DNA of 30,253 nt from Chloroflexota bacterium (GTDB lineage: Bacteria > Chloroflexota > UBA11872 > UBA12225). Made by a program: the position numbers and the translations under genes. Under the pieces are notes generated by a model. That model had not been told where the DNA came from, searched no databases, and was given only the letters and a program-made list of their open reading frames with translations. The DNA lies in contig JACQGX010000284.1 of assembly GCA_016199265.1 (NCBI GenBank), forward strand, positions 1-30,253, given 5' to 3'. This document shows, piece by piece, positions 1 through 27,285 of this stretch; the first letter of the stretch is position 1, and the number at the start of each line of letters is the position of its first letter.

Positions 1-119
1 GCGCGTGGCGTCGGACCCAAGCCGCCGGTGTTGAGGTACGTCGAATGCGCCAGCGCCGGCAACTCGGCGCGGATGGCATCGAGATCTATCGTGCTCGTTG
101 CGTCGGCGGTGTTCGTCAT
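1..119 (-). CDS. Partial gene; only the N-terminus is in the window and the gene runs off the 5' edge. Translation MTNTADATSTIDLDAIRAELPALAHSTYLNTGGLGPTPR resembles the N-terminus of class-V aminotransferase-fold PLP enzymes (YLNxGxxGPxP).
   Basis: Reverse-complement translation of 1-119 is open from an ATG at ~117-119 with TGGAG about 9 nt upstream. The YLNTGGLGP motif is typical of cysteine desulfurase/aminotransferase class V N-termini. Not in the ORF track because it is under 60 aa in-window. Confidence 0.35.
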   Translation of the reverse strand, partial: MTNTADATSTIDLDAIRAELPALAHSTYLNTGGLGPTPR

Positions 120-136
120 TTAGGTGCTCCAGTTTT

Positions 137-240
137 GGACGAAGGACGAAGGACGAAGCAGGTGGTCTGTGGACCATTACTTCGTGGCTTGTCTGCTTGG
201 TCGTTCGTCTGCTTCGTCCTTCGTCCTTCTTCTGCTTCGC
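137..240. repeat. GGACGAA-heptamer palindromic element. Left arm (GGACGAA)x3-GCAG, right arm CTGC-(TTCGTCC)x2-TTC, about 45-nt loop. Intergenic.
   Basis: Arms at 137-161 and 209-229 are reverse complements. Sits between the stop of the propeller gene (240) and the start of the partial gene at 119. Confidence 0.8.
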
Positions 241-1325
241 TATACCGTCGCAACGTACACCTGTGGATGGCCGGTGGCATCGGAGGTGTAGACGACGCGG
301 GCGCCATCGGGGCTGTAGGATGGGTGAGGGTGGGTCCACTGGGGACCATAAGCAGCCTCGGGCGTGGGGCCGTCCCAAATGGGTTCGGGTAGCGCCCACT
401 GGTAGCCCTGGCAGGAGGCACGCGGCTGGCAGAGCGTGCGGCGGGCGCCGGTGCGGGGATCGATGAGGACGAGGCCAACATCGGGCAGCGCCGTGTCGCA
501 GACGATCAGCCCTCCATCCGGGCGCGGCGCCGGGTGCCAGCAGTTGAACGCGGCGACGGCGCGGTCGCCGGTGCCGTCGCGCCGGATAGACCGGAGCGCG
601 TGCGGCCAATGGGTGTAGATGATCTCGTCGTCGTTCAGCCAGCTCTCGTGCGTGAGCCACTCGCGGCGTGTCTGGCCGCGGAGCGGGTGCGGATCGGTCC
701 CGTCGCGGTTCACCAGCCACAGACGGGGCAGATCGCTCGAGAACAAGATCTGGCGACCATTGGGGCTGAACTGCGCGTGGCCGACGAAGCGTTCGGTCTC
801 GTATGCGGTGCGGACGCCCGACCCGTCGGTGCGGATGGCGAGCAGCGCGTTGCGCCGGCCGTGCGTGCTGCTCTCGCCGCTGAACGCCGACGTGACGAGC
901 TCGGCACCGTCGGGGCTGAGGCTGCCGGTGTCGACGTGAGCATCGCCGGGGCAGACCGCGACGGTTGAGCGATACGCCGTGGCCACTTCGACGGCGCGCA
1001 GCTCGCGTCCGGCGCCGTAGAACACATGGCTGCCGTCGCGGCCGACGCACGCCGACCAGGGGTTCACCTCTCCGGTGTCGGTGAGCTGTAGCAACTCGCC
1101 CGAGGCCTCGTCGACCGCATACAGGTTGGCGCGCCCGCCGTCGCGGTACGACGTGACGATCAGACACGACTCGCCGCCGCGGCCGCGAGGGAACGCCCAC
1201 GCCTGGTTGAGGAAGTAGGGTGCGTGATTGATGCATGGCGTGTTGGTGAGCTGCACGATGGCGGTGCCGGTCTCCGGCTCGACCCACGCGCGCCGCTCGG
1301 GCGGAAAGCGATCGCCTGCGCTCAT
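240..1325 (-). CDS. Beta-propeller protein with PD40/WD40-like repeats (TolB-like / oligogalacturonate-lyase-like fold).
   Basis: 361-aa ORF with recurring SPDG/SPNG/YSPDG blade motifs and high codon-usage regularity. TAG stop at 240-242 directly abuts a palindromic repeat element. Confidence 0.6.
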   Translation of the reverse strand: MSAGDRFPPERRAWVEPETGTAIVQLTNTPCINHAPYFLNQAWAFPRGRGGESCLIVTSYRDGGRANLYAVDEASGELLQLTDTGEVNPWSACVGRDGSHVFYGAGRELRAVEVATAYRSTVAVCPGDAHVDTGSLSPDGAELVTSAFSGESSTHGRRNALLAIRTDGSGVRTAYETERFVGHAQFSPNGRQILFSSDLPRLWLVNRDGTDPHPLRGQTRREWLTHESWLNDDEIIYTHWPHALRSIRRDGTGDRAVAAFNCWHPAPRPDGGLIVCDTALPDVGLVLIDPRTGARRTLCQPRASCQGYQWALPEPIWDGPTPEAAYGPQWTHPHPSYSPDGARVVYTSDATGHPQVYVATV

Positions 1326-5842: not shown

Positions 5843-5982
5843 TGGAGTGCAAGGTGCAAAGTGAGACGAGGGGCGCATGACCACCGGTCATGCGCCCCTC
5901 GTGCTTCCAAACCAAAGCCGAGGTAGGACTCACAGGCGTCCTCACTTTGCACTTTGCACTTTGCACTCTGCACTTGGTTTAG
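5843..5982. repeat. Composite of two GTGCAAA-family elements. At 5843-5905, heptamers GTGCAAGGTGCAAAGTGAG plus a perfect 17-bp hairpin ACGAGGGGCGCATGACC/GGTCATGCGCCCCTCGT. At 5906-5982, a complete minus-orientation copy.
   Basis: Starts 1 nt after the TAG stop of the dienelactone hydrolase gene. The second unit ends with (TTTGCAC)x3...CTTGGTTTAG. Confidence 0.85.
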
Positions 5983-6736: not shown

Positions 6737-6805
6737 CTAAACCAAGTGCAAAGTGCAAAATGCAAAGTGAGGCAGCCTGCGCGTTCCACCTTGGCTTTGG
6801 TTTAG
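6737..6805 (+). repeat. GTGCAAA-heptamer element, copy 3 (plus orientation), between the two secreted-protein genes.
   Basis: CTAAACCAAGTGCAAAGTGCAAAATGCAAAGTGAGG...CCTTGGCTTTGGTTTAG. Followed by an AC-rich spacer and the RBS of gene 6838. Confidence 0.9.
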
Positions 6806-8131: not shown

Positions 8132-8677
8132 ATGGACGGTGTCGTGCTCGAGCTCGTACGGATCGGACTGCGCACCGCGCACGCGCTGGCGGCGGTGCTG
8201 TGGGTCGGCGGCAGCCTATTCTTCGCGCTCGCCCTCATCCCAGCCCTGCGGCGCATCGGCGCTACCGCCGAACGGCTCGAGCTCGCGACGGCCGTTGGGC
8301 GCGAGTTCCGCCGGCTCGTGCGCGCCTCGATAGTGATCTTTCTCGTCACGGGGGCGATCCTTGCCTTCGACCGCTTGAGCCGGCCGGGCGTGCCCGCCCT
8401 CTACACGGCACTGCTCGGCGTCAAGATCGCCCTCGCGCTCTGGATGTTCTGGTTGGTGCGCGAGCGTGACGTGCCCGACCGTCCGGCGACGCTTGCCACG
8501 GCGACGGCACCTTCAGAGTCGGGCGCGGCCGCTGCATCCAGCGAAGCAAGCGCCTTGTGGCACCCGTGCATCCGGCGGCAGACGCTCCTGCTCACGCTGG
8601 GAATCGCCGTGTATCTGCTGGCGATCGTGCTCAGGGTGATCTTTGAAGCGGCGCAGGCAGCGCAGCCGCGTGTCTAA
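8132..8677 (+). CDS. CopD-family-like integral membrane protein (4 TM, short form); putative copper-handling membrane protein.
   Basis: TM1 motif RTAHALAAVLWVGGSLFF matches the CopD hallmark Hx6-7WxGG. Four predicted TM helices. TAA stop overlaps the left end of a palindromic repeat element. Confidence 0.45.
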   Translation: MDGVVLELVRIGLRTAHALAAVLWVGGSLFFALALIPALRRIGATAERLELATAVGREFRRLVRASIVIFLVTGAILAFDRLSRPGVPALYTALLGVKIALALWMFWLVRERDVPDRPATLATATAPSESGAAAASSEASALWHPCIRRQTLLLTLGIAVYLLAIVLRVIFEAAQAAQPRV

Positions 8678-8742
8678 ACCAAGTGCAAAATGCAAAGTGC
8701 AAAGTGAGGATCCCTGCGGGTCCCACTGTGGCTTTGGTTTAG
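8674..8742 (+). repeat. GTGCAAA-heptamer element, copy 4. Its first bases CTAAACC supply the TAA stop codon of the CopD-like gene.
   Basis: CTAAACCAAGTGCAAAATGCAAAGTGCAAAGTGAGGATCCCTGCGGGTCCCACTGTGGCTTTGGTTTAG. The interior is 90% identical to copy 1. Confidence 0.9.
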
Positions 8743-8754
8743 GTTTGGTTCAAG

Positions 8755-8796
8755 GTCCGAAGTCCGAAGTCCGAGGTCCAGAGTCGAGGGTCGACT
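8755..8796 (+). repeat. Tandem heptamer array (GTCCGAA)x3 decaying into GTCCAGA/GTCGAGG, immediately after copy 4.
   Basis: ggtccgaagtccgaagtccgaggtccagagtcgagggtcgac read directly. Confidence 0.8.
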
Positions 8797-8843
8797 GCTG
8801 CGTGCCGCCGCTTTGGACGGTGGACGTATGACTGTGGAACCGG

Positions 8844-10610
8844 TCAAGAGGGATCTCGGCGGATCACCCAGGCGCGATACTCGCCGAATCGGCCGGCCGG
8901 AGTGGTGCCGGCCGGGAGATGCGCCGCCACCTGCGCGTGGCGCGAGACGACAACGCCTACGGCCGGCACACCGGCCGGGCTTGGAAAACCGGTGATGCCA
9001 GGCGCCACGATAGTGGGTGCGATCAAGCGTTCGCTGTCGACGAAGTGCACCGGCGCCGCGTAGTACGCGACCTCGCGGTCGGCGGCGACGAGCTCGCCGC
9101 GCGCAGCCACCGAGCGCAGCCACGCCGCCGCCTCGAACTGGCCCGACGAGCCGTAGAAGTAGGTGGTCGACTCGACCGTCGCCGCTTGGCGCGCCGCGGC
9201 TGAGACGTTGGCGCCGAGCAACAACCCGACGGCGAGCGCTCCCGCCCGCGTTGGTCCGGCGAACCGCGCGAGCGCCAGGCAGCCGGCGGCCACCGCGAGC
9301 CAGGCGGCGAGCAGACGGAGGTCGGCGTGCCGGATGAGCGCGTCGGCGCCGGTGGCGGTGCCGGCAGCGAAACCCACCGCGATTCCGGCCGGCAGAAACC
9401 AATTGGTTTTGGCGAAGGACGAATAACGGTTGACGGAGGCTCCACCGACAGAAGCGCCAATTTCGTCCTTCGTCGTTCGGCCTTCGTTAAGAAGGCGGAT
9501 GGCGGTAGGTAAGGCCGCGTCGAGCCACCGCGCTGCCGCAACGCCCGCGACGGCGGCCGCGAGGGGGAGCACGCCGGCGTGGTACTTGGGAAACCCTGCC
9601 GCCATCTTGCTCAGGTAGACCGCCATCGTCACGGCCGTGACGAACAGCAGCGCCGCGGCCGGCTCATCGCGTCGCAGCGCCAGCGGCGCCGCGACGAGCA
9701 GGCCGACCAACAGCGGGTGCAGCCACTGCATGCTCCGCAACGCCGCGACGAGCGTACGCAGCGCCGCAAGCCCCACCCCGGCGGCCGGCCCGGTCGCCGC
9801 GTTCCCCGTCAGGCCGGCCGTGTCCAGCGCCTCGTACCAGACATCACGGAATGGCTGTACAGCGGGCAGGCCGGTGCCCCACGCCACGAGCAGCCACGAG
9901 ACCAATAACACCAGACTGCCGGCGATACACGCGACGGCGAGCCGCCGCGCTTGCGGCCGGCGCCGCTGCAGCGTCAGCCAGAGCACGAGCGCCGCGGCAA
10001 CGATGAGGGGGGTGGTGAGCTTGCACCAGAGAGCAAGGGCGAAGGCGGCGGACAGCGCGGCGCCCGACCTGAGCCGGCGCCCTCCGTCCTTCGTCCTTCG
10101 TCCTTCGTCTCTTCCGGTGCGCAGGGCGAGCCAGACGAAGGCTGCGGTGGCAGGCGCCAGGACGGTGCCGTCGATGTCGAGCAGGAGGGCGCTCTGGATG
10201 GCGTACGGCGACGTCGCCCAGAGGAGCGCCGCGAGGACGCCGGCGCGTGGGCCACCGGCGAACCGGCCGAGCGCCGCCGCGCCAGCCAGCGAGGCCAGAC
10301 CCGCCAGGACACCGAAAGCGCGCAGCGCGGCGTCACCCGCCCCGGCGACGCGCTGCCACGCCGCCAGCGCCAGCAGGTAGCCCGGCGGGTGGTAGAGCGC
10401 GTACTGCAGGCGCAGGCCGTGCTCCGGATTCCAGGGGTAGTCGGCAATGTACCCGCGGTCGTAGAGAAAACTGCCGCCCGCGATTGCCCGCGCGGCTTTG
10501 GCGAAGTCGACTTCGTCGTACGTCAGCGGGCGACCTATCTGTGACAGTGCTAGGACGAGATAGAGCGCCACCGCTGCCAGGAAGACCGCACCGGTGTAGG
10601 GGCGAAGCAT
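8844..10610 (-). CDS. GT-C fold glycosyltransferase of the ArnT / PMT (GT39/GT83) type. Polytopic membrane protein.
   Basis: About 14 hydrophobic helices. N-terminal loop motif YDEVDFAKAARAIAGG (the DE motif of ArnT/PMT_2 enzymes). Carries two in-frame insertions of GGACGAA-heptamer palindromic elements (see repeats). Confidence 0.7.
   Translation of the reverse strand: MLRPYTGAVFLAAVALYLVLALSQIGRPLTYDEVDFAKAARAIAGGSFLYDRGYIADYPWNPEHGLRLQYALYHPPGYLLALAAWQRVAGAGDAALRAFGVLAGLASLAGAAALGRFAGGPRAGVLAALLWATSPYAIQSALLLDIDGTVLAPATAAFVWLALRTGRDEGRRTKDGGRRLRSGAALSAAFALALWCKLTTPLIVAAALVLWLTLQRRRPQARRLAVACIAGSLVLLVSWLLVAWGTGLPAVQPFRDVWYEALDTAGLTGNAATGPAAGVGLAALRTLVAALRSMQWLHPLLVGLLVAAPLALRRDEPAAALLFVTAVTMAVYLSKMAAGFPKYHAGVLPLAAAVAGVAAARWLDAALPTAIRLLNEGRTTKDEIGASVGGASVNRYSSFAKTNWFLPAGIAVGFAAGTATGADALIRHADLRLLAAWLAVAAGCLALARFAGPTRAGALAVGLLLGANVSAAARQAATVESTTYFYGSSGQFEAAAWLRSVAARGELVAADREVAYYAAPVHFVDSERLIAPTIVAPGITGFPSPAGVPAVGVVVSRHAQVAAHLPAGTTPAGRFGEYRAWVIRRDPS
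9411..9492. repeat. GGACGAA-family palindromic element inserted in-frame in the glycosyltransferase gene. Encodes roughly NEGRTTKDEIGASVGGASVNRYSSFA.
   Basis: Arms GGCGAAGGACGAA ... TTCGTCCTTCGTCGTTCGGCCTTCG are inverted repeats. The 82-84-nt length preserves the reading frame of ORF 8844..10610. Confidence 0.75.
10037..10110. repeat. Second, partly degenerate GGACGAA-family element in-frame in the glycosyltransferase gene ((TCCTTCG)x3 arm with a weak GGGCGAAGGCGGCGGAC partner). Encodes ...DEGRRTKDGG....
   Basis: cctccgtccttcgtccttcgtccttcgtc at 10082-10110, with a partial inverted partner at 10037-10053. Confidence 0.6.
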
Positions 10611-19877: not shown

Positions 19878-20174
19878 ATGCCATCGGCGCAGGGACGAAC
19901 GCAGATTGTGAATCGGTTGAAGAGCGTCGACGGCCATCTGCGCGGCGTGATCAAGATGGTCGAAGAAGACGCTTACTGCATCGACGTGATCCAGCAGTTG
20001 CGCGCCGTCCAGGCCGCGATCAATAGGGTCAACGCACTGCTCTTGGCCGACCACCTCGACACGTGCGTCACGACCGCGATCCGAAGCGACGAGCCGACCG
20101 AGCGCGAGCGTGTCATCGGCGAACTGCTCCGCGTCTTCGAACACGGTGCCGATGCAGCAGGCAGCAGGCAGTAG
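19878..20174 (+). CDS. csoR: CsoR/RcnR-family copper-sensing transcriptional repressor
   Basis: [43 protein letters not shown] matches the CsoR core, including the YC...H...C metal ligands (C..., H..., C in DTC). GAGAGGGAG RBS. Located directly upstream of copA. Confidence 0.85.
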
Positions 20175-20188
20175 GCAGCAGGCAGCGG
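20154..20188 (+). repeat. Tandem heptamer array GCAGCAG GCAGCAG GCAGTAG GCAGCAG GCAGCGG spanning the csoR stop codon and the copA start region.
   Basis: Read directly. The csoR TAG stop is the TAG inside the third unit. Confidence 0.85.
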
Positions 20189-20196
20189 CACGCGAC

Positions 20197-22860
20197 ATGA
20201 AGACACTCGATCACGCGGCACAGATGAACACCGCGACGGATACGGGCCAGCGCCAGACCGGCGCGAACGGCGCCGCCGAGCGTACAGCAGTCAGCGGCAG
20301 CGCCGCGCCGCCGGCGGCCGCCGAGCTTACCTTCCCCGTCACCGGCATGACGTGCGCCTCGTGCGTCCGGCGCATCGAACGCTCGCTCTCCAAGGTCGAA
20401 GGCGTTGTCGAGGCCAACGTGAACCTCGCCACCGAGCAGGCGACGGTTCGTTACGATCCCAGCGCCCCGACGCTCGCCGAGGCGCCGCCGATGGCCGTCT
20501 TCCGCGCCGCCGTCGAGCGCGCAGGATACGGCGTCCGTGAGACCGAGCCGGCCTCGCCCGCAGCGGGGGCGGCCATGATCGAAAGCTCGGAAGCGCGCGC
20601 GGCCGCGGACGAGCGGCGTGAGACCAGGACGGTGTTGGCCAAGACCGGCCTCTCGCTTGGCGTCGCCGCGATCATCATGGGGCTGATGTTTTTGCCGGCT
20701 CGCCTGATCGGCGTGCCGGCACTGCCGTGGAGCATGGAGCTGCTCAACTGGCTGTTCTTGGTCCTGGCGACGCCGGTGCAGTTCTGGGCCGGTTGGGATT
20801 TCTACCGCGCGACGTGGGCGGCCGCGAAACACGGCGCGACGAATATGAACACGCTCGTCGCCGTCGGCACGAGCGCCGCCTACGTCTACAGCGCCTTCGC
20901 CACATTCTTTCCGCAGGTGCTGGCCGGTGCCGGGATCATGCCCGAGACGTACTTCGACAGCTCGACGATCATCGTCGGCTTGATCCTGCTCGGTCGCTAC
21001 CTCGAGCATCGCGCGCGCGGCCAGACGAGCGCCGCGATCAAGAAGCTGATCGGGCTGCAACCCAAGACGGCCCAGGTGATCCGCAACGGCGAAGAACACG
21101 ACGTGCCGGTCGAAATGGTACAGATCGAGGACATTGTCCGCGTGCGCCCGGGCGAGAAGATCCCCGTCGACGGCGTCGTGCTCGAGGGCCGCTCGGCGGT
21201 CGACGAGAGTATGCTGACCGGCGAAAGCCTGCCGGTAGAGAAGGGGCCGGGCGATCAGGTGATCGGCGCCACGCTCAACGCCACCGGTGCGTTCACGTTC
21301 CGCGCGACACGCGTCGGTACCGACACGACGCTCGCGCAGATCGTGAAGCTGGTGCAGGAGGCGCAGGGCTCCAAAGCACCGATCCAGCGCCTCGCCGACC
21401 TGATCTCGTCGTACTTCGTACCGGTCGTTCTCGTCGTGTCCGCGTTCACGTTCGGCGTCTGGTACGTTTTCGGTCCGGAGCCGCAAGTCACCTTCGCGCT
21501 CACCACCTTCATCGCCGTCCTTATCATCGCCTGCCCGTGCGCGATGGGCCTGGCGACGCCCACCGCCATCATGGTCGGCACCGGCCAGGGCGCCGAGCAC
21601 GGCATCCTCATCCGCGGCGGCGAGGCGCTCGAGCAGGCGCACAAGGTGCGCGCGATCGTCCTCGACAAGACGGGGACGCTGACGCAGGGCAAACCGGCGC
21701 TGACGGACGTCAACTCAGTCCAAAGTCCAAAGTCCAAAGTCCAAAGTAATGGGCCATCCGGCTGGGGACTGGGGACCGGGGACCGGGGACTGCTGCGCCT
21801 CGTCGCCGCTGCCGAGCGGAACTCGGAGCATCCGGTGGCGGCGGCGATTGTGGAGGGGGCGCGGGCGCGCGGCGTCGAGCTTGTGGAGGCGGAACGATTC
21901 GAGTCGGTGACGGGGCGGGGCGTGGCTGCCGTCGTCGATGGGCATTTCGTGCTCGCGGGCAACCAGGCGCTCCTGGCCGATTACAGCGTCTCACTCGACG
22001 GGCTTGAGACGCAGGTAGCGGCGCTCGCACGGGAGGGCAAGACGCCGATCTACGTCGCCGTTGACGGCGCGGCGGCGGGCGTGCTGGCGGTCGCCGATAC
22101 GCTCAAGCCGACGTCGCCGCAGGCGGTGGCGCAGCTCGAAGCGCTCGGGCTCGAGGTCTGGATGCTCACCGGCGATAACCGGGCGACCGCCGAGGCGATC
22201 GCGCGGCAGGCCGGGATCGTACCCGAGCGCGTGCTCGCCGAGGTACTGCCCGATCAGAAGGCGGCGCAGGTCAAGGCGCTCCAAGCGCGCGGCCTGCCGA
22301 CCGCCATGGTCGGCGACGGCATCAACGACGCGCCGGCGCTGGCGCAGGCCGATCTGGGGATCGCCATCGGCACGGGGACGGATGTCGCCATGGAGGCGTC
22401 CGATGTCACGCTCGTCGGCGGCGATCTGCGGGGCGTCGTCGCGGCGATCGCCCTGTCGCGCCGGACGATCGACGTCATCCGCCAGAACCTGTTCTGGGCG
22501 TTCGCCTACAACGTCCTGCTCATCCCCGTCGCGATGGGCGCGCTCTACCCGTTTTTTGGCATGCTGCTGAACCCGGGATTGGCGGCCGGCGCGATGGCGC
22601 TCTCGAGCGTGTCGGTCGTTACCAACTCGCTCCGGCTCCGTGGCTTCCGGGTGCCGGATGATCCGCGCGATATTACACACCCACCGCTCGGCGCCCGCCT
22701 GCGCGAGTGGAGCTATCTCGCCGGAATCGCGGCCATCGCGCTCGCGCTCGGCGCGGCCATCATGTGGTGGTCGGCCGGCCGCGGCCCGGCGGACCAGGGC
22801 GAGCAGCAAATGGCGACAACTCAGGCCGATTCAACGCAACACAAAGGAGGCACACAATGA
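20197..22860 (+). CDS. copA: Copper-translocating P1B-type ATPase. Track ORF starts at GTG 20110; an ATG at 20152 is also possible.
   Basis: N-terminal HMA domain [13 protein letters not shown] motif [20 protein letters not shown] phosphorylation site. GDGINDAP hinge. Contains a 26-aa in-frame heptamer-repeat insertion after [16 protein letters not shown]. Confidence 0.95.
21718..21791 (+). repeat. Two adjacent tandem heptamer arrays inside the copA coding sequence: (GTCCAAA)x4 then (GGGGACY)x4. In-frame; encodes [25 protein letters not shown].
   Basis: Located right after the [16 protein letters not shown] phosphorylation loop. The equivalent linker in characterised CopA proteins is about 15 aa shorter. 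Confidence 0.85.
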
Positions 22861-23442: not shown

Positions 23443-23443
23443 G

Positions 23444-23478
23444 GCAGTAGGCAGTAAGCAGTAGCCGGTGGGCAGTTG
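23444..23478 (+). repeat. Tandem heptamer array GCAGTAG GCAGTAA GCAGTAG CCGGTGG GCAGTTG, starting 2 nt after the cbtB-like stop codon. Same GCAGYAG family as 20154-20188.
   Basis: Read directly. Confidence 0.8.
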
Positions 23479-24852: not shown

Positions 24853-27285
24853 TTGGCCGTCCGGTTTCCCTGGTATTGGGCGAAAGGCAGAGGGGAATGC
24901 TGCATTCGACCTGCGCCTTTCGCCCTTCGTCATGTTCCTGCAGTGATTAGTCAGACACCCACAGCATCGCACTCGCCCGCCGCTTCTCCGACCGCTTCAG
25001 GCGCCCGCGGCCTCCGGGCCCAACTTGCCCGCACGTACGTTGCGGCGCTCGGCCGGATGGACAACCCAAGTCTCCTGCCGCTCGCACTCGCCCAAGCCGG
25101 CTCGCTCGTACCCGATGGCCCGAACGGCTTGGCGCTGCTGCACGAGTTTGCCGGCCGTCCGGAATGGCCGGCGCGCTACCTCGCCGCGCGGCAGCTCGGC
25201 GAGCGTGGCGCCGCTGCCGGCGCCGAAGCGCAGGCGGCCGCCTGGCCGGTGCTTCTGTATTTGGCGGCCGATACGGAACGATGGGTGGCCGAAGGCGCGG
25301 CCTGGGGCCTCGGCGCGCTCCTCCGCGCTGATCCAGAACGGTGGGGGCCGGCCTTTCTGGCGGGGTTTGGGGGAGAGGCGACGGCGGCTGCGGTACGACG
25401 CGCGTTGCTCTTCGGCGTTGTGCCGGCGTTGCGGGAGGGCCCTGACGGTGCGCGGCGCATCGCACTCGAGGTGATCGATTGGGCGGCGGGCGATCAATCG
25501 AGCGCGACGCGGCAGCTCGGCTCGTTGATTGTCGGACGCGAAGCGGCGGAGCACGCGCCGGACACAGCGCTCGATCTGGTGGAGAGATGGGCGTCGTCCG
25601 GCGATCCCGCCCGCCAATGGCAGGCCGCGCGCGCGCTGACGGCGAGCCTGCGCGCGATCGACGAGCAGCGAGCGGCCGCGATCGTGACCCACCTCGAAGC
25701 CTCTCCCGATCCCGCCGTGCGCAACGCGCTGCGCGGTGCCCTGAGGGAGGGGACCGAGGACGAAGACGAGGTGGTCGGGCACGGACCGCAACACAACAGA
25801 ACGGGCGGAACAGGGGACATGGCCGTATCACACGGGGCCTTGGCACCGGCCTCCACCACCGCTAGGCCCGCGCCCGCCGAATACACGACCAACCGCGCCC
25901 CCACCGTTCCCGTGGCACCCACGCCTGACGGCGCCGCCTCCGCCGTATCTCCGTCCCCCGGACCCTGGCAGACGACGGCCGACATTCCGGTCAGCGACGA
26001 CTTGATCGACCAGGTCATCGGGCAGGACCGCGCGGTCGAGATCGTGCGTCTCGCCGCGCGGCAGCGGCGCTTCGTCCTGATGGTCGGCGAGCCGGGTACG
26101 GGCAAGAGCATGCTCGCTGCAGCGATGGCCGAGATGATGGGCGCCGACGATCTCGAGGACGTACTGGTGCTGCCCAATCCGGAGAGCCGGATTACGCCGC
26201 AAGTGGAGGTCACGCCGGCGGCGCAGGGTGAGCAGGCCGTGCGGGAGGCGAAGAAACGGCGCGGCGAAGCCGAGACGGCGATTACGTTTCTGTTCTGGGC
26301 CGCGTCGATCGCGACGACGCTCATTGCCGGCTGGTACGCGCTGGCGACCAGGAGCGCCGTACCGGGAATCGCCGCGGCGGTCGTGGTCGCAGTGCTGTGG
26401 GGCGTGCGCCGCATGTTCCGCGCGCCGGCGCGTCACCCGGTGCCGAAGCTGCTCGTGAACAACGCTCGGGCCGTCGAGTCCAACCGGGCGCCGCTCGTCG
26501 ACGCCACGGGGTTCCACGCCGGCGCGCTGCTCGGCGACGTCCGGCACGACCCGTTCCAATCGGGCGGCTACGAGACGCCGCCGCACGAGCTCGTCGAGCC
26601 AGGCGCGATTCACCTGGCGCATCGAGGGGTGCTCTTTATCGACGAGGTTTCGACGCTCTCGATCGAGTCGCAGCAATCGCTGCTGACCGCGATCCAGGAA
26701 AAGCGGTTCCCGATTTCGGGCCGCACGCTCGGCTCCTCGGGCACGATGATCCGGTCCGCGCCCACGCCGTGCGATTTCCTGCTCATCCTTGCGGGGAACA
26801 TGGAGGATGTGCAGAAGATGCATCCTGCGCTGCGCTCGCGCGTCCGCGGCTACGGCTACGAGATCTATGTGAACGAGGACATGCCGGACAGCGAGGAGAA
26901 CCGGGCCAAGCTGGCACGCTTCTGCGCACAAGAGGTGCGGAAAGACCGCAAGATCCCGCACCTCAGCCGGGCAGCGGTCGACGCGGTGATCGACGAGGCG
27001 CGCATTCGCGCCGGAACCAGGGACCGGTTGACGACCCGCCTGCGCGAGCTAGGCGGGCTCATCCGTGCCGCCGGCGACCTCGCCGTGCAAGAGGGCGCAC
27101 CGCTCATTGAACCGCGCCACGTCATCGCCGCCCGCCAGAACACCCGGACGCTGGAAGAGCAAATGGAGGCGAGGAAGTCTACTTCGCCACGTCTTCCAGC
27201 TCCGGCAGTAGCACCACGCTCTCCTGCTCGTTCGGATCGGTCCGCGCGAGGATGGCGGTACACGGCTCGGTTTGGCTCAGGTTGA
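24853..27285 (+). CDS. Fusion protein. N-terminal HEAT/AlkD-like helical repeat domain, then an archaeal-type LonB AAA+ module with a two-helix transmembrane insertion between Walker A and Walker B. No Lon protease domain. Start uncertain; an ATG at 25057 is possible.
   Basis: DLIDQVIGQDRAVEIVRLAARQRRFVLMVGEPGTGKSML (Walker A). LEDVLVLPNPESRITPQVEVTPAAQGE. TM hairpin AITFLFWAASIATTLIAGWYALA / GIAAAVVVAVLWGV. GVLFIDEV (Walker B). RFPISGRTLGSSGTMIRSAPTPCDFLLILAGN. HPALRSRVRGYGYEIYV. All are LonB-type signatures. The ORF ends about 60 aa after the AAA lid, inside the antisense of the cupin gene. Confidence 0.65.
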   Translation: MAVRFPWYWAKGRGECCIRPAPFALRHVPAVISQTPTASHSPAASPTASGARGLRAQLARTYVAALGRMDNPSLLPLALAQAGSLVPDGPNGLALLHEFAGRPEWPARYLAARQLGERGAAAGAEAQAAAWPVLLYLAADTERWVAEGAAWGLGALLRADPERWGPAFLAGFGGEATAAAVRRALLFGVVPALREGPDGARRIALEVIDWAAGDQSSATRQLGSLIVGREAAEHAPDTALDLVERWASSGDPARQWQAARALTASLRAIDEQRAAAIVTHLEASPDPAVRNALRGALREGTEDEDEVVGHGPQHNRTGGTGDMAVSHGALAPASTTARPAPAEYTTNRAPTVPVAPTPDGAASAVSPSPGPWQTTADIPVSDDLIDQVIGQDRAVEIVRLAARQRRFVLMVGEPGTGKSMLAAAMAEMMGADDLEDVLVLPNPESRITPQVEVTPAAQGEQAVREAKKRRGEAETAITFLFWAASIATTLIAGWYALATRSAVPGIAAAVVVAVLWGVRRMFRAPARHPVPKLLVNNARAVESNRAPLVDATGFHAGALLGDVRHDPFQSGGYETPPHELVEPGAIHLAHRGVLFIDEVSTLSIESQQSLLTAIQEKRFPISGRTLGSSGTMIRSAPTPCDFLLILAGNMEDVQKMHPALRSRVRGYGYEIYVNEDMPDSEENRAKLARFCAQEVRKDRKIPHLSRAAVDAVIDEARIRAGTRDRLTTRLRELGGLIRAAGDLAVQEGAPLIEPRHVIAARQNTRTLEEQMEARKSTSPRLPAPAVAPRSPARSDRSARGWRYTARFGSG

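Follow-up and report, generated by a model that had tools for sequence, protein, structure and literature searches.

Heptanucleotide repeat arrays in frame within a membrane glycosyltransferase gene of a Chloroflexota bacterium

The glycosyltransferase gene and its two repeat segments

The minus strand of the window, i.e., the whole stretch of 30,253 nt analysed here (contig JACQGX010000284.1), carries at 8844..10610 an intact gene for a GT39/ArnT-like membrane glycosyltransferase of 588 aa (GT-C fold), recognised by an ORF with an ATG start, a Pfam match, an AF2 model and a fold search. The PMT_2 match covers aa 74-239 (E 1.8e-10; 41.7 bits against a cut-off of 26.1), and an identical protein (P0001) is named by NCBI as 'glycosyltransferase family 39 protein', while an NCBIfam scan returned no family and no equivalog. 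The AF2 model (pLDDT 79, pTM 0.84) is nearest to ArnT (5ezm, E 3e-9) in a Foldseek search, followed by AglB, STT3 and PMT. The protein shares with ArnT and PMT (CAZy GT83 and GT39, lipid-linked-sugar enzymes) the PMT_2 domain, the GT-C fold, an acidic motif and a C-terminal soluble domain, but is only 15-17% identical to ArnT. The conserved acidic motif, YDEVDF, follows TM1 in what is predicted to be the first extracytoplasmic loop, and its residues D35 and F36 are invariant among 15 homologs. The closest homolog is 57% identical, and an end-to-end alignment with 14 homologs showed that all 63 invariant columns are kept. The description of the gene in an earlier, sequence-only reading, as ArnT/PMT-like and intact, is confirmed by these results.

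Two segments of the gene are repetitive at the DNA level. The first lies at 9396..9497 and is a composite palindromic block, in frame, that specifies aa 372-405 (RLLNEGRTTKDEIGASVGGASVNRYSSFAKTNWF), with the NEGRTTKDEIGASVGGASVNRYSSFA peptide beginning at aa 375; these coordinates are approximate bounds of an insertion of about 30 aa. The left hairpin arm, GGCGAAGGACGAA, is at 9411..9423 (plus strand), and the right arm, at 9462..9487 (plus strand), is a degenerate (TTCGTCC) array of 3.7 units (TRF: period 7, 78% matches). The first 13 nt of the right arm (TTCGTCCTTCGTC, 9462-9474) pair with the left arm to give a 13 bp stem (fold z = -3.3). Both edges of the block carry a further small feature. 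Adjoining the left arm is a perfect 12 nt palindrome read from the sequence (AACCAATTGGTT, 9399..9410), and at the other edge, folding of 9400-9500 gave a second small hairpin, GCCTTC-GTTAA-GAAGGC (9477..9499). The 12 nt palindrome looks like the two ends (AAACCAA / TTGGTTT) of the CACTTTG elements of the window, joined together.

Alignment with homologs had been proposed as a way of recognising lineage-specific insertions, and for this block the outcome was clear. The spacing between the anchor residues W362 and D423 is 60 aa in the window protein compared with 27-31 aa in 12 of 14 homologs. The block has a GC content of 0.53 and a GC3 of 0.56, where the gene as a whole has 0.72 and 0.84; pLDDT falls below 50 at aa 368-393 of the AF2 model. 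Taken at the sequence level, the data support the view that the block represents a lineage-specific insertion of about 30 aa. No direct repeat (target duplication) flanks 9396-9497. Two homologs (P0002 and P0004) have extra residues at the same site, specified by non-repetitive DNA in which neither hairpins nor heptamers were found (z = -0.02, -0.92 and +0.65) but which may be decayed copies of the same insertion. Length thus changes readily at this site in general, and the block in the window could therefore be an older loop that has been remodelled. A faint peptide likeness is seen at this site (GASVNRY versus GLSVTRW). With the closest glycosyltransferase homolog only 57% identical, the insertion can neither be dated nor seen as an empty site.

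The second segment, at 10081..10114, is a heptamer array, (GACGAAG)x4.7 on the coding (minus) strand, which encodes DEGRRTKDGG at aa 168-177 (TRF: period 7, 4.7 copies, 92% matches; GC3 0.54) and includes a perfect run at 10085-10109. In the AF2 model the loop encoded by the array (aa 171-175) connects helices 151-170 and 176-196. The array has a weak inverted counterpart at 10036..10057 (14 of 22 bases identical, a score that 0.2% of windows in this ORF attain), within sequence coding for a conserved TM helix (AAFALA); the coding of 10037-10080 (AAFALALW) is conserved, as is the peptide in all homologs, and the inverted match is probably not part of an inserted element. The region 10030-10130 folds no better than shuffled sequences (z = -0.96) and its left half is conserved; therefore, the second feature is a solitary array and not a palindrome. 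The sequence-only reading had counted two in-frame palindromic elements, which holds for the reading frame of both and for the hairpin at 9411-9474, but not for the structure of the second. Nor did the homolog alignment reveal a clear insertion here, because the corresponding loop, 32 aa in the window protein, ranges from 16 to 54 aa across the homologs, three of which exceed the window protein.

Both segments (GC3 0.50-0.56, against 0.84 for the gene) fall between helices predicted by AF2, in agreement with the loop positions first suggested for them. Both loops are rich in Arg and Lys and are probably cytoplasmic, as judged from the AF2 helices, the conserved motifs and the positive-inside rule; a simple hydropathy scan gave an ambiguous topology. 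The peptides DEGRRTK and NEGRTTK are absent from the aligned homologs of the glycosyltransferase; their presence in orthologs had been named as evidence against insertion.

Heptanucleotide arrays in the window and in other genomes

The two segments belong to a larger set. TRF identified 13 arrays of period 7, with at least 7 unit types, in the 30 kb of the window; 8 are intergenic or at gene edges and 5 lie within ORFs. Counting only perfect arrays with 2.6 copies or more, there are seven for period 7, one for period 9 and none for periods 5, 6, 8 and 10-12. The sequence GGACGAAGGACGAA, allowing up to 2 mismatches, occurs 12 times where 0.27 would be expected. At all three in-ORF sites in the window, the reading frame is intact.

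An intergenic element at 137..240, between the stop of ORF 240..1325 (minus strand) and the start (119) of the next minus-strand gene, consists of (GGACGAA)x3, a loop of about 54 nt and (TTCGTCC)x2+. The 137-158 array has a period of 7 and 3.1 copies (TRF), and the hairpin is strong (-28.7 kcal/mol, z = -6.9); the element is real and of the same kind, as first proposed. It has the arms and the 5′ flank (TTTTGG) in common with the 9411-9474 element, and each is about 90-105 nt in size. The 137-240 hairpin was considered as an intrinsic terminator and rejected, as no terminator-like site was called and no T-run is found past the stem. Past the 3′ end of the glycosyltransferase gene, in its flank, there is a (GTCCGAA)x3.6 array (8755..8779, plus strand; TRF), and folding of 8740-8845 gave no significant hairpin (z = -1.08). 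The CACTTTG elements form a second family in the window, with four copies at 80% identity and conservation of both ends and body. No transposase domain was detected in 20 ORFs of the window and no RAYT gene is present in it; no Rfam family matched anywhere in the window at the gathering cut-off, and a 24-mer from the interior of the 9411-9474 element gave 0 matches in the metagenome collection.

Arrays of GGACGAA with three or more units were found at no fewer than 119 loci in many phyla, and the heptamer recurs at several loci per genome. Within 928 kb of other genomes, period-7 arrays numbered 319, compared with 23, 26 and 14 for periods 5, 6 and 8, and more than half of the 319 (183) are not the heptamer searched for. 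Twenty-six of 123 arrays are deep in long ORFs with coding-type GC3, and the ORFs that carry arrays include those for DNA ligase, Mfd, CtaA-CtaB and another PMT_2 protein (two arrays). Most arrays (105 of 123) have no inverted partner. Among the inverted pairs there is a bias of orientation, the partner being downstream in 15 cases and upstream in 3, i.e., 15 of 18 have the GGACGAA arm 5′ and the TTCGTCC arm 3′. The interiors of 137-240, 9411-9474 and 14 other GGACGAA palindromes are unrelated, with loops of 4 to about 70 nt, and these copies have only the heptamer arms in common and no conserved body.

Arrays in CopA and a pair of filled and empty alleles

Two adjoining arrays, (AGTCCAA)x4.4 and (CTGGGGA)x4.4 (TRF), are found in frame at 21717..21792 (plus strand) in the gene for a CopA P-type ATPase (20152/20197..22860). 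They encode 25 residues in the linker from the P-domain to the N-domain. The CopA of the window has 17 aa more than that of A. fulgidus (3j09), and its linker is 46 aa long, against the canonical 30 aa seen in 78 of 120 near homologs. Insertions at the same site occur in 21 of 119 other near homologs, and in three homologs read at the DNA level the extra sequence is made up of different heptamers. Folding of 21717-21792 gave no significant hairpin (z = -0.63).

In another Chloroflexi population, filled and empty CopA alleles are embedded in DNA of about 99% identity. The filled one (L125) carries (GTCGTGA)n, a loop and (TCACGAC)n, and the element has arms of 4-5 heptamers, a loop of about 50 nt and a total length of 114 nt, with a pronounced hairpin (z = -6.7). 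Filled and empty alleles differ by a net 81 nt; about 33 nt of the ancestral loop were replaced, no target duplication is present, and the site lies within a patch of about 1 kb of raised divergence. The pair shows rapid turnover. The active element family proposed earlier was not borne out for the glycosyltransferase gene, as turnover was seen only at this analogous CopA element of the other population.

Known repeat systems and a proposed origin of the arrays

Dispersed heptanucleotide repeats have been known from cyanobacteria (STRR) since about 1990, and have no accepted origin or function. STRR-like repeats and the arrays described here both have a 7 nt unit, usually in 3-5 copies, with several units per genome and many dispersed loci. 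STRR-like repeats are also mainly intergenic with a minority in genes, as in the window (8 versus 5), and inverted pairs have been noted among them too. The (CTGGGGA)n array of the window corresponds, on the opposite strand, to the STRR1 unit CCCCAGT (Mazel et al. 1990). Unlike strict STRR, which are cyanobacterial, the window derives from a high-GC Chloroflexi host, and its units (GGACGAA, CACTTTG, GTCCGAA, AGTCCAA and others) differ from those of the known heptanucleotide repeats and are not G4-forming. Geobacter metallireducens carries a 49-copy, four-heptamer GGGACCG element (Aklujkar et al. 2009, PMC2700814), Xanthomonas and Nostoc carry GGGAATC and GGGGA(C/T)T heptanucleotide repeats (Rehm et al. 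2015, PMC4692102), and intragenic heptanucleotide arrays have already been reported in all three genera (PMC2700814, PMC4692102). No literature linking heptanucleotide repeats to Chloroflexi was found, and ortholog-anchored in-frame insertions, in-ORF hairpins of about 100 nt and filled/empty pairs were not found in the heptanucleotide-repeat literature examined.

The segments had originally been likened to Rickettsia palindromic elements (RPEs). As summarised in two reports (PMC10969869, PMC3733652), RPEs (Ogata et al. 2000) are palindromic repeats of about 100-150 nt, in frame within functional genes, whose peptides occupy fold-compatible positions, and RPE families have a consensus conserved along the full length and a conserved peptide. 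The likeness lies in the in-frame insertion into an intact conserved gene. The analogy fails on the conserved body, since the copies share only their arms of tandem 7-mers and have unrelated interiors, and that of 9411-9474 had no match in the metagenome collection; there is also no target duplication and no transposase in the window, and the host is not a Rickettsia. MITEs have terminal inverted repeats flanked by target duplications, and no such duplication is found at 9396-9497 or at the CopA pair. REP, BIME and REPIN sequences, which are mobilised by RAYT (Y1) transposases, are likewise short hairpin repeats, mostly at gene 3′ ends and often in inverted pairs, and the CGTC in every arm unit of the window recalls the CGTC-tagged REP superfamily. 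However, a REP is one imperfect palindrome, 20-40 nt long, whose tetranucleotide (GTAG or CGTC) lies outside the stem, whereas in the window CGTC is part of the stem and the arms consist of 7-mers in tandem. The elements resemble cyanobacterial STRR and the Geobacter four-heptamer elements and are not RPE-like or MITE-like; they are clearly a new example of a phenomenon that has already been reported but little studied.

Both segments are likely to be members of a genome-wide set of dispersed heptanucleotide arrays that arose by a repeat-driven route without a transposase, and such an origin is favoured over cut-and-paste transposition. Slippage alone cannot create the arrays, because stepwise slippage in an ORF would cause frameshifts. 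Pre-formed arrays or hairpins might instead be copied by template switching or gene conversion, array length could be adjusted by slippage in steps of three units, and the alleles would spread by homologous recombination. Survival within genes may be aided in three ways: a 7 nt unit yields the same cyclic 7 aa peptide in any frame; GGACGAA is free of stops in all six frames (GRRTKDE / FVLRPSS); and selection would retain only those cases whose net length is divisible by 3 and whose position is a surface or cytoplasmic loop that tolerates them. On this repeat-driven account, the block of about 100 nt in the glycosyltransferase gene (heptamer arms and an unrelated 38 nt loop) lengthens by about 30 aa a loop rich in Arg and Lys in all homologs, and the repeat-coded peptides are most likely passengers without a function of their own.

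The heptanucleotide class is very dense in this Chloroflexi lineage, where arrays are often paired in inverted orientation and fold into hairpins of about 100 nt, and most copies are intergenic. Arrays are nevertheless regularly in frame within conserved proteins, namely the GT39 glycosyltransferase and CopA in the window, and DNA ligase, Mfd and CtaA-CtaB elsewhere, and of two near-identical genomes, one carries at least one such block that the other lacks. Exact boundaries can be read from the filled/empty pair and from the in-frame copies anchored by orthologs, and these provide material for working out how arrays originate. In practical terms, the arrays lead to longer loops, regions of low confidence in structure models and truncated domain matches, such as the PMT_2 match in L079, which ends at the array.

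The exact GGACGAA unit across phyla and the orientation bias of its inverted pairs hint at a specific process outside the repeat-driven explanation. It is conceivable, though doubtful, that Chloroflexota and some members of other phyla possess a dedicated process, specific to 7 nt units, that writes or copies arrays and heptamer-armed hairpins, often enough for loops of conserved proteins to be reshaped many times over in independent events. Templated addition at the two ends of a break, for instance, would produce the GGACGAA 5′ / TTCGTCC 3′ order of the 15 pairs. If true, such a process would give rise to new peptide segments quite generally, much as RPEs do, but across a phylum and without dependence on sequence.

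An unlikely source is a genuinely mobile palindromic element of the RPE, MITE or REPIN type, on which a transposase encoded elsewhere in the genome acts in trans and which entered the gene twice, surviving because it is free of stops and a multiple of 3 in length. Such an element would suit the common arms, TTTTGG flank and size of 137-240 and 9411-9474, but not their unrelated interiors and variable loops, nor the absence of the interior 24-mer from the metagenome collection. The L125 CopA element is built alike, with similar arms and loop, yet neither it nor 9411-9474 shows a target duplication, and its replacement of ancestral sequence is no clean addition. The CACTTTG family, with its conserved ends and body, the orientation of the inverted pairs and the recurrence of one heptamer at several loci per genome are all compatible with mobility; the many unpaired arrays and the lack of a transposase in the window weigh against it.

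Short-repeat-driven, phase-variable glycosyltransferases are established in other bacteria. The arrays could be contingency loci, in which the gain or loss of one 7 nt unit shifts the frame and switches CopA and the glycosyltransferase, an enzyme that modifies the cell surface, on and off at high frequency; simple sequence repeats have been tied to phase variation (PMC4692102), and the runs at 10085-10109 (3.6 units) and 21717-21747 (4.4 units) are perfect or nearly so, which suits slippage. This is improbable given that arrays of the same kind occur in the housekeeping proteins Mfd, DNA ligase and CtaA-CtaB, where switching hardly makes sense, that copy numbers are low (3 to 5), that the arrays are mostly intergenic or else mid-gene in tolerant loops and not near the N-terminus, and that no frameshifted variant was seen in the clusters examined.

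There is very little likelihood that the segments are ordinary selected loops, i.e., hydrophilic linkers with DNA that is repetitive by chance and not inserted. Both loops vary in length, three homologs being longer at the solitary array and P0002 and P0004 having non-repetitive extra residues at the block, but a GC3 of 0.5 against 0.84 indicates non-ameliorated sequence, the identical heptamer is present in an intergenic hairpin 9 kb away, a 13 bp inverted repeat is not expected from selection on a peptide, and no homolog has DEGRRTK or NEGRTTK. Composition and the intergenic copies largely refute this reading.

That the arrays are mis-joined repeats or that the gene is a decaying pseudogene is hardly credible even for a contig from a MAG, where repeats are error-prone in short-read assembly, as the frame and the invariant family residues are retained, analogous arrays are present in isolates (Kouleothrix aurantiaca, Ferrimonas, Streptomyces) as well as in megabase contigs, and independent assemblies share one CopA allele with its array, that of P0150 having been read on 9 contigs.

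Repeat segments in the glycosyltransferase gene

The G+C content of the window is 67.6% over 30,253 nt, and its proteins are identical to database entries named from a Chloroflexi MAG. The ORF at 8844..10610 (minus strand) is an intact GT39/ArnT-like glycosyltransferase gene, as the sequence-only reading had held. From an ATG start it reads through 588 codons without interruption, its product matches Pfam PMT_2 at aa 74-239 (E 1.8e-10), and 14 homologs (41-60% identity) align with it end to end, with all invariant residues kept, including a YDEVDF motif after the first helix. The closest solved fold to an AlphaFold model made from this alignment (pLDDT 79, pTM 0.84) is ArnT 5ezm (E 3e-9), followed by AglB, STT3 and PMT.

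The repeats described by that reading were found in all three places. A 13-bp stem is formed by GGCGAAGGACGAA (9411-9423) and TTCGTCCTTCGTC (9462-9474; z = -3.3), a period-7 array of 4.7 units (TRF) occupies 10081-10114, and in intergenic DNA the element at 137-240 folds into a hairpin (-28.7 kcal/mol, z = -6.9). The 14-mer GGACGAAGGACGAA occurs 12 times at no more than two mismatches, against 0.27 expected.

The view that both segments in the gene are insertions relative to orthologs holds at the palindromic site, where 60 residues separate anchors W362 and D423, about 30 aa above the 27-31 residues of 12 of the 14 homologs. This surplus corresponds to a DNA block at ~9396-9497 made up of three palindromic modules: AACCAATTGGTT, a perfect palindrome of 12 nt at 9399-9410; the hairpin with heptamer arms and a 38-nt loop; and a small GCCTTC/GAAGGC hairpin. 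The other two homologs (P0002 and P0004) also have surplus residues here, and the DNA coding for them contains neither heptamers nor a hairpin. The view is not sustained for the loop containing the period-7 array, which varies throughout the family (16-54 aa; 32 aa in the window protein). A partial element had been proposed at 10037-10110, but its left half is conserved TM-helix coding sequence, with a weak inverted match to the array (14/22 bases) and no significant fold; lineage specificity at this site is confined to the array. The GC3 of both segments is 0.50-0.56, against 0.84 for the gene, and is the lowest in the gene except for TM1, indicating sequence not adapted to the codon usage of the glycosyltransferase gene. 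Immediately 3′ of the stop codon (8745-8835), a (GTCCGAA)x3.6 array, weakly partnered by TTTGGACGGTGGAC, adjoins a CACTTTG element; the fold of this region is not significant (z = -1.08).

Both repeats had been expected to fall between TM helices. The AlphaFold model places the array in a short loop (aa 171-175) flanked by helices 151-170 and 176-196, and the palindromic block in a low-confidence segment (aa 368-393) flanked by helices 345-364 and 394-420. Both loops are rich in Arg/Lys in all homologs. The acidic motifs of GT-C enzymes (ArnT, PglB, PMT) face outside, and the invariant acidic motifs here are YDEVDF and LLLDIDG. Since the model helices, outward acidic motifs and Arg/Lys-rich loops agree, both loops are predicted to be cytoplasmic and remote from the active site, in a topology that puts the N-terminus on the inner and the C-terminal domain on the outer side. 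A plain hydropathy scan is not decisive on this point.

Heptamer arrays in the window and in other genomes

The window carries 13 period-7 arrays (TRF), mostly intergenic, with seven or more kinds of unit (GGACGAA, CACTTTG, GTCCGAA, AGTCCAA, CTGGGGA, GGCAGTA and GCAGCAG). With a minimum of 2.6 copies, there are seven perfect arrays at period 7, one at period 9 and none at periods 5, 6, 8 and 10-12. A degenerate (GGCAGTA) array of about five units follows the CopA gene in intergenic DNA (23443-23476). Four intergenic copies of a ~72-nt CACTTTG element are located at 2243-2317 and 5907-5982 and, as reverse complements, at 6737-6805 and 8674-8743. They are 80% identical; the element has CTAAACCAAAG / CTTGGTTTAG as its ends and contains an internal hairpin plus 3-4 CACTTTG units. 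In contrast to the GGACGAA hairpins, the body is conserved, and the copies resemble a genuine family of REP- or MITE-like elements. The palindrome at 9399-9410 resembles both ends of this element fused without the interior. Elsewhere in the window, an 810-aa AAA+ protein (24853-27285) has its Walker-A part at aa 386-436 and the remaining ATPase domain at aa 577-663; the ~140 aa between could be an insertion of a segment or a domain.

Among species-representative genomes, (GGACGAA)x3 is present at at least 119 loci, against ~0.3 expected by chance as calculated from collection size. The hosts include Chloroflexia, Anaerolineae, Caldilineales, Thermomicrobia and Kouleothrix and, outside these, Acidobacteria, Bacteroidales, Planctomycetes and others. 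Deep within long ORFs with coding-type GC3 lie 26 of 123 GGACGAA arrays, and arrays in ORFs are found in both orientations. Host products include an ATP-dependent DNA ligase (array within the adenylation domain), Mfd (whose CarD_TRCF_RID domain covers 78 aa, the profile having 57 positions), a CtaA-CtaB fusion carrying its array in the linker, an NB-ARC/TPR regulator and a TonB-dependent receptor. Another is a second PMT_2/GT39-type membrane protein, from an Anaerolineae MAG (L079:3210-5573), with two in-frame (TTCGTCC) arrays and other heptamer arrays; its Pfam PMT_2 match, which takes in positions 2-95 of the 160 in the profile, breaks off at the first array.

An inverted partner with identical unit accompanies only 18 of the 123 arrays; relative to the GGACGAA arm, 15 of these partners are downstream and three upstream. 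These palindromes have unrelated interiors, with loops of between 4 and ~70 nt. In a Caldilineales MAG (L046, ~30-250, minus strand), tandem GGACGAA/TTCGTCC hairpins, each with a 19-nt spacer TGAAATCGGCCCAAGCCCA, constitute a higher-order array of hairpins. In the isolate Ferrimonas gelatinilytica JCM 18720 (L011, 4315-4846), GGACGAA is repeated perfectly 76 times in tandem (532 nt), within or adjoining a 336-codon open frame.

Allele turnover in CopA

The CopA-type P-type ATPase gene (20152/20197..22860) carries two in-frame arrays, (AGTCCAA)x4.4 at 21717-21747 and (CTGGGGA)x4.4 at 21762-21792, in the P-to-N domain linker. The resulting 25-aa peptide comes after the DKTGT phosphorylation motif and before the N-domain, and the protein has 17 aa more at this site than A. 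fulgidus CopA. A third array, (GCAGCAG)x5 at 20154-20190, codes for the N-terminal 15 aa of the NCBI-called 902-aa product. The DKTGTLT-to-SEHP segment is 30 aa in 78 of the 120 nearest homologs and 37-80 aa in 21 others; in the window it is 46 aa, against the canonical 30. In all three loci read at the DNA level, other heptamer arrays, located at this same position, make up the surplus.

Related CopA alleles can be exactly 7 aa apart (TDYGLRTTDSSHD vs TD-------PSHD). In one 90%-identity cluster, two 1172-aa members have VGRESRVVSEGTLPRAGNAQQLATTDTAHDSRLTTH and two 1145-aa members the short LDARYDGSRDE. The flanking DNA of filled and empty loci, with and without a heptamer palindrome, is 99-100% identical. 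The filled allele (L125:3095-3240, compared with the empty L126) contains a 114-nt in-frame palindrome, (GTCGTGA)n, a ~50-nt loop and (TCACGAC)n, with a hairpin of -47 kcal/mol (z = -6.7) and an architecture in common with the glycosyltransferase block. It takes the place of ~33 nt in the empty allele, a net difference of 81 nt, and target duplication is absent at the junction. This pair shows that heptamer blocks are gained and lost with the reading frame kept. The site lies inside a ~1-kb patch of raised divergence, suggesting that the alleles were exchanged by homologous recombination. The L125 arm unit is similar to conserved upstream codons, GTCACCGAC.

Relation to known repeats and proposed origin of in-frame blocks

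While the observation of the repeats is confirmed, their interpretation as mobile elements of the Rickettsia palindromic element (RPE) type is only partly supported. Like RPEs, they are in-frame and loop-compatible, and the 9411-9474 hairpin is palindromic as well, but RPEs are defined by a conserved full-length consensus, and the GGACGAA elements have neither such a body nor a target duplication. The nearest known class is that of dispersed heptanucleotide repeats. Read as its reverse complement, the (CTGGGGA)n array corresponds to CCCCAGT, the unit of cyanobacterial STRR1. For bacteria, Rehm et al. report an excess of heptamer SSRs and find inverted pairs, with 7-11% of copies intragenic in Xanthomonas and 32% in Nostoc (PMC4692102). 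No literature linking heptanucleotide repeats to Chloroflexi was found. The window arrays are a well-documented addition to a known, if poorly understood, repeat class; what the analysis contributes is the ortholog-anchored insertion sites and the filled/empty allele pair.

As 7 and 3 are coprime, a heptamer array encodes one and the same cyclic 7-aa peptide in whichever frame it is read, and GGACGAA is stop-free in all six frames (peptides GRRTKDE or FVLRPSS). Persistence would be limited to blocks of net length 3n in tolerant loops, so that in-frame copies would survive through heptamer arithmetic and selection. Classical transposition is an unlikely source, given the lack of a conserved body and target duplication, the absence of a transposase among the window's encoded proteins, and an interior of the 9411-9474 hairpin that was not found elsewhere in a metagenome scan with a 24-mer. 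Simple stepwise slippage inside an ORF would inevitably cause frameshifts. With transposition unlikely and slippage alone insufficient, we favour a model in which template switching or gene conversion copies arrays or hairpins that already exist. Array length would then be altered in 3-unit steps, as exemplified by the 7-aa difference between CopA alleles. A dedicated process may lie behind the orientation bias of the inverted pairs and the reappearance of one heptamer in different phyla.
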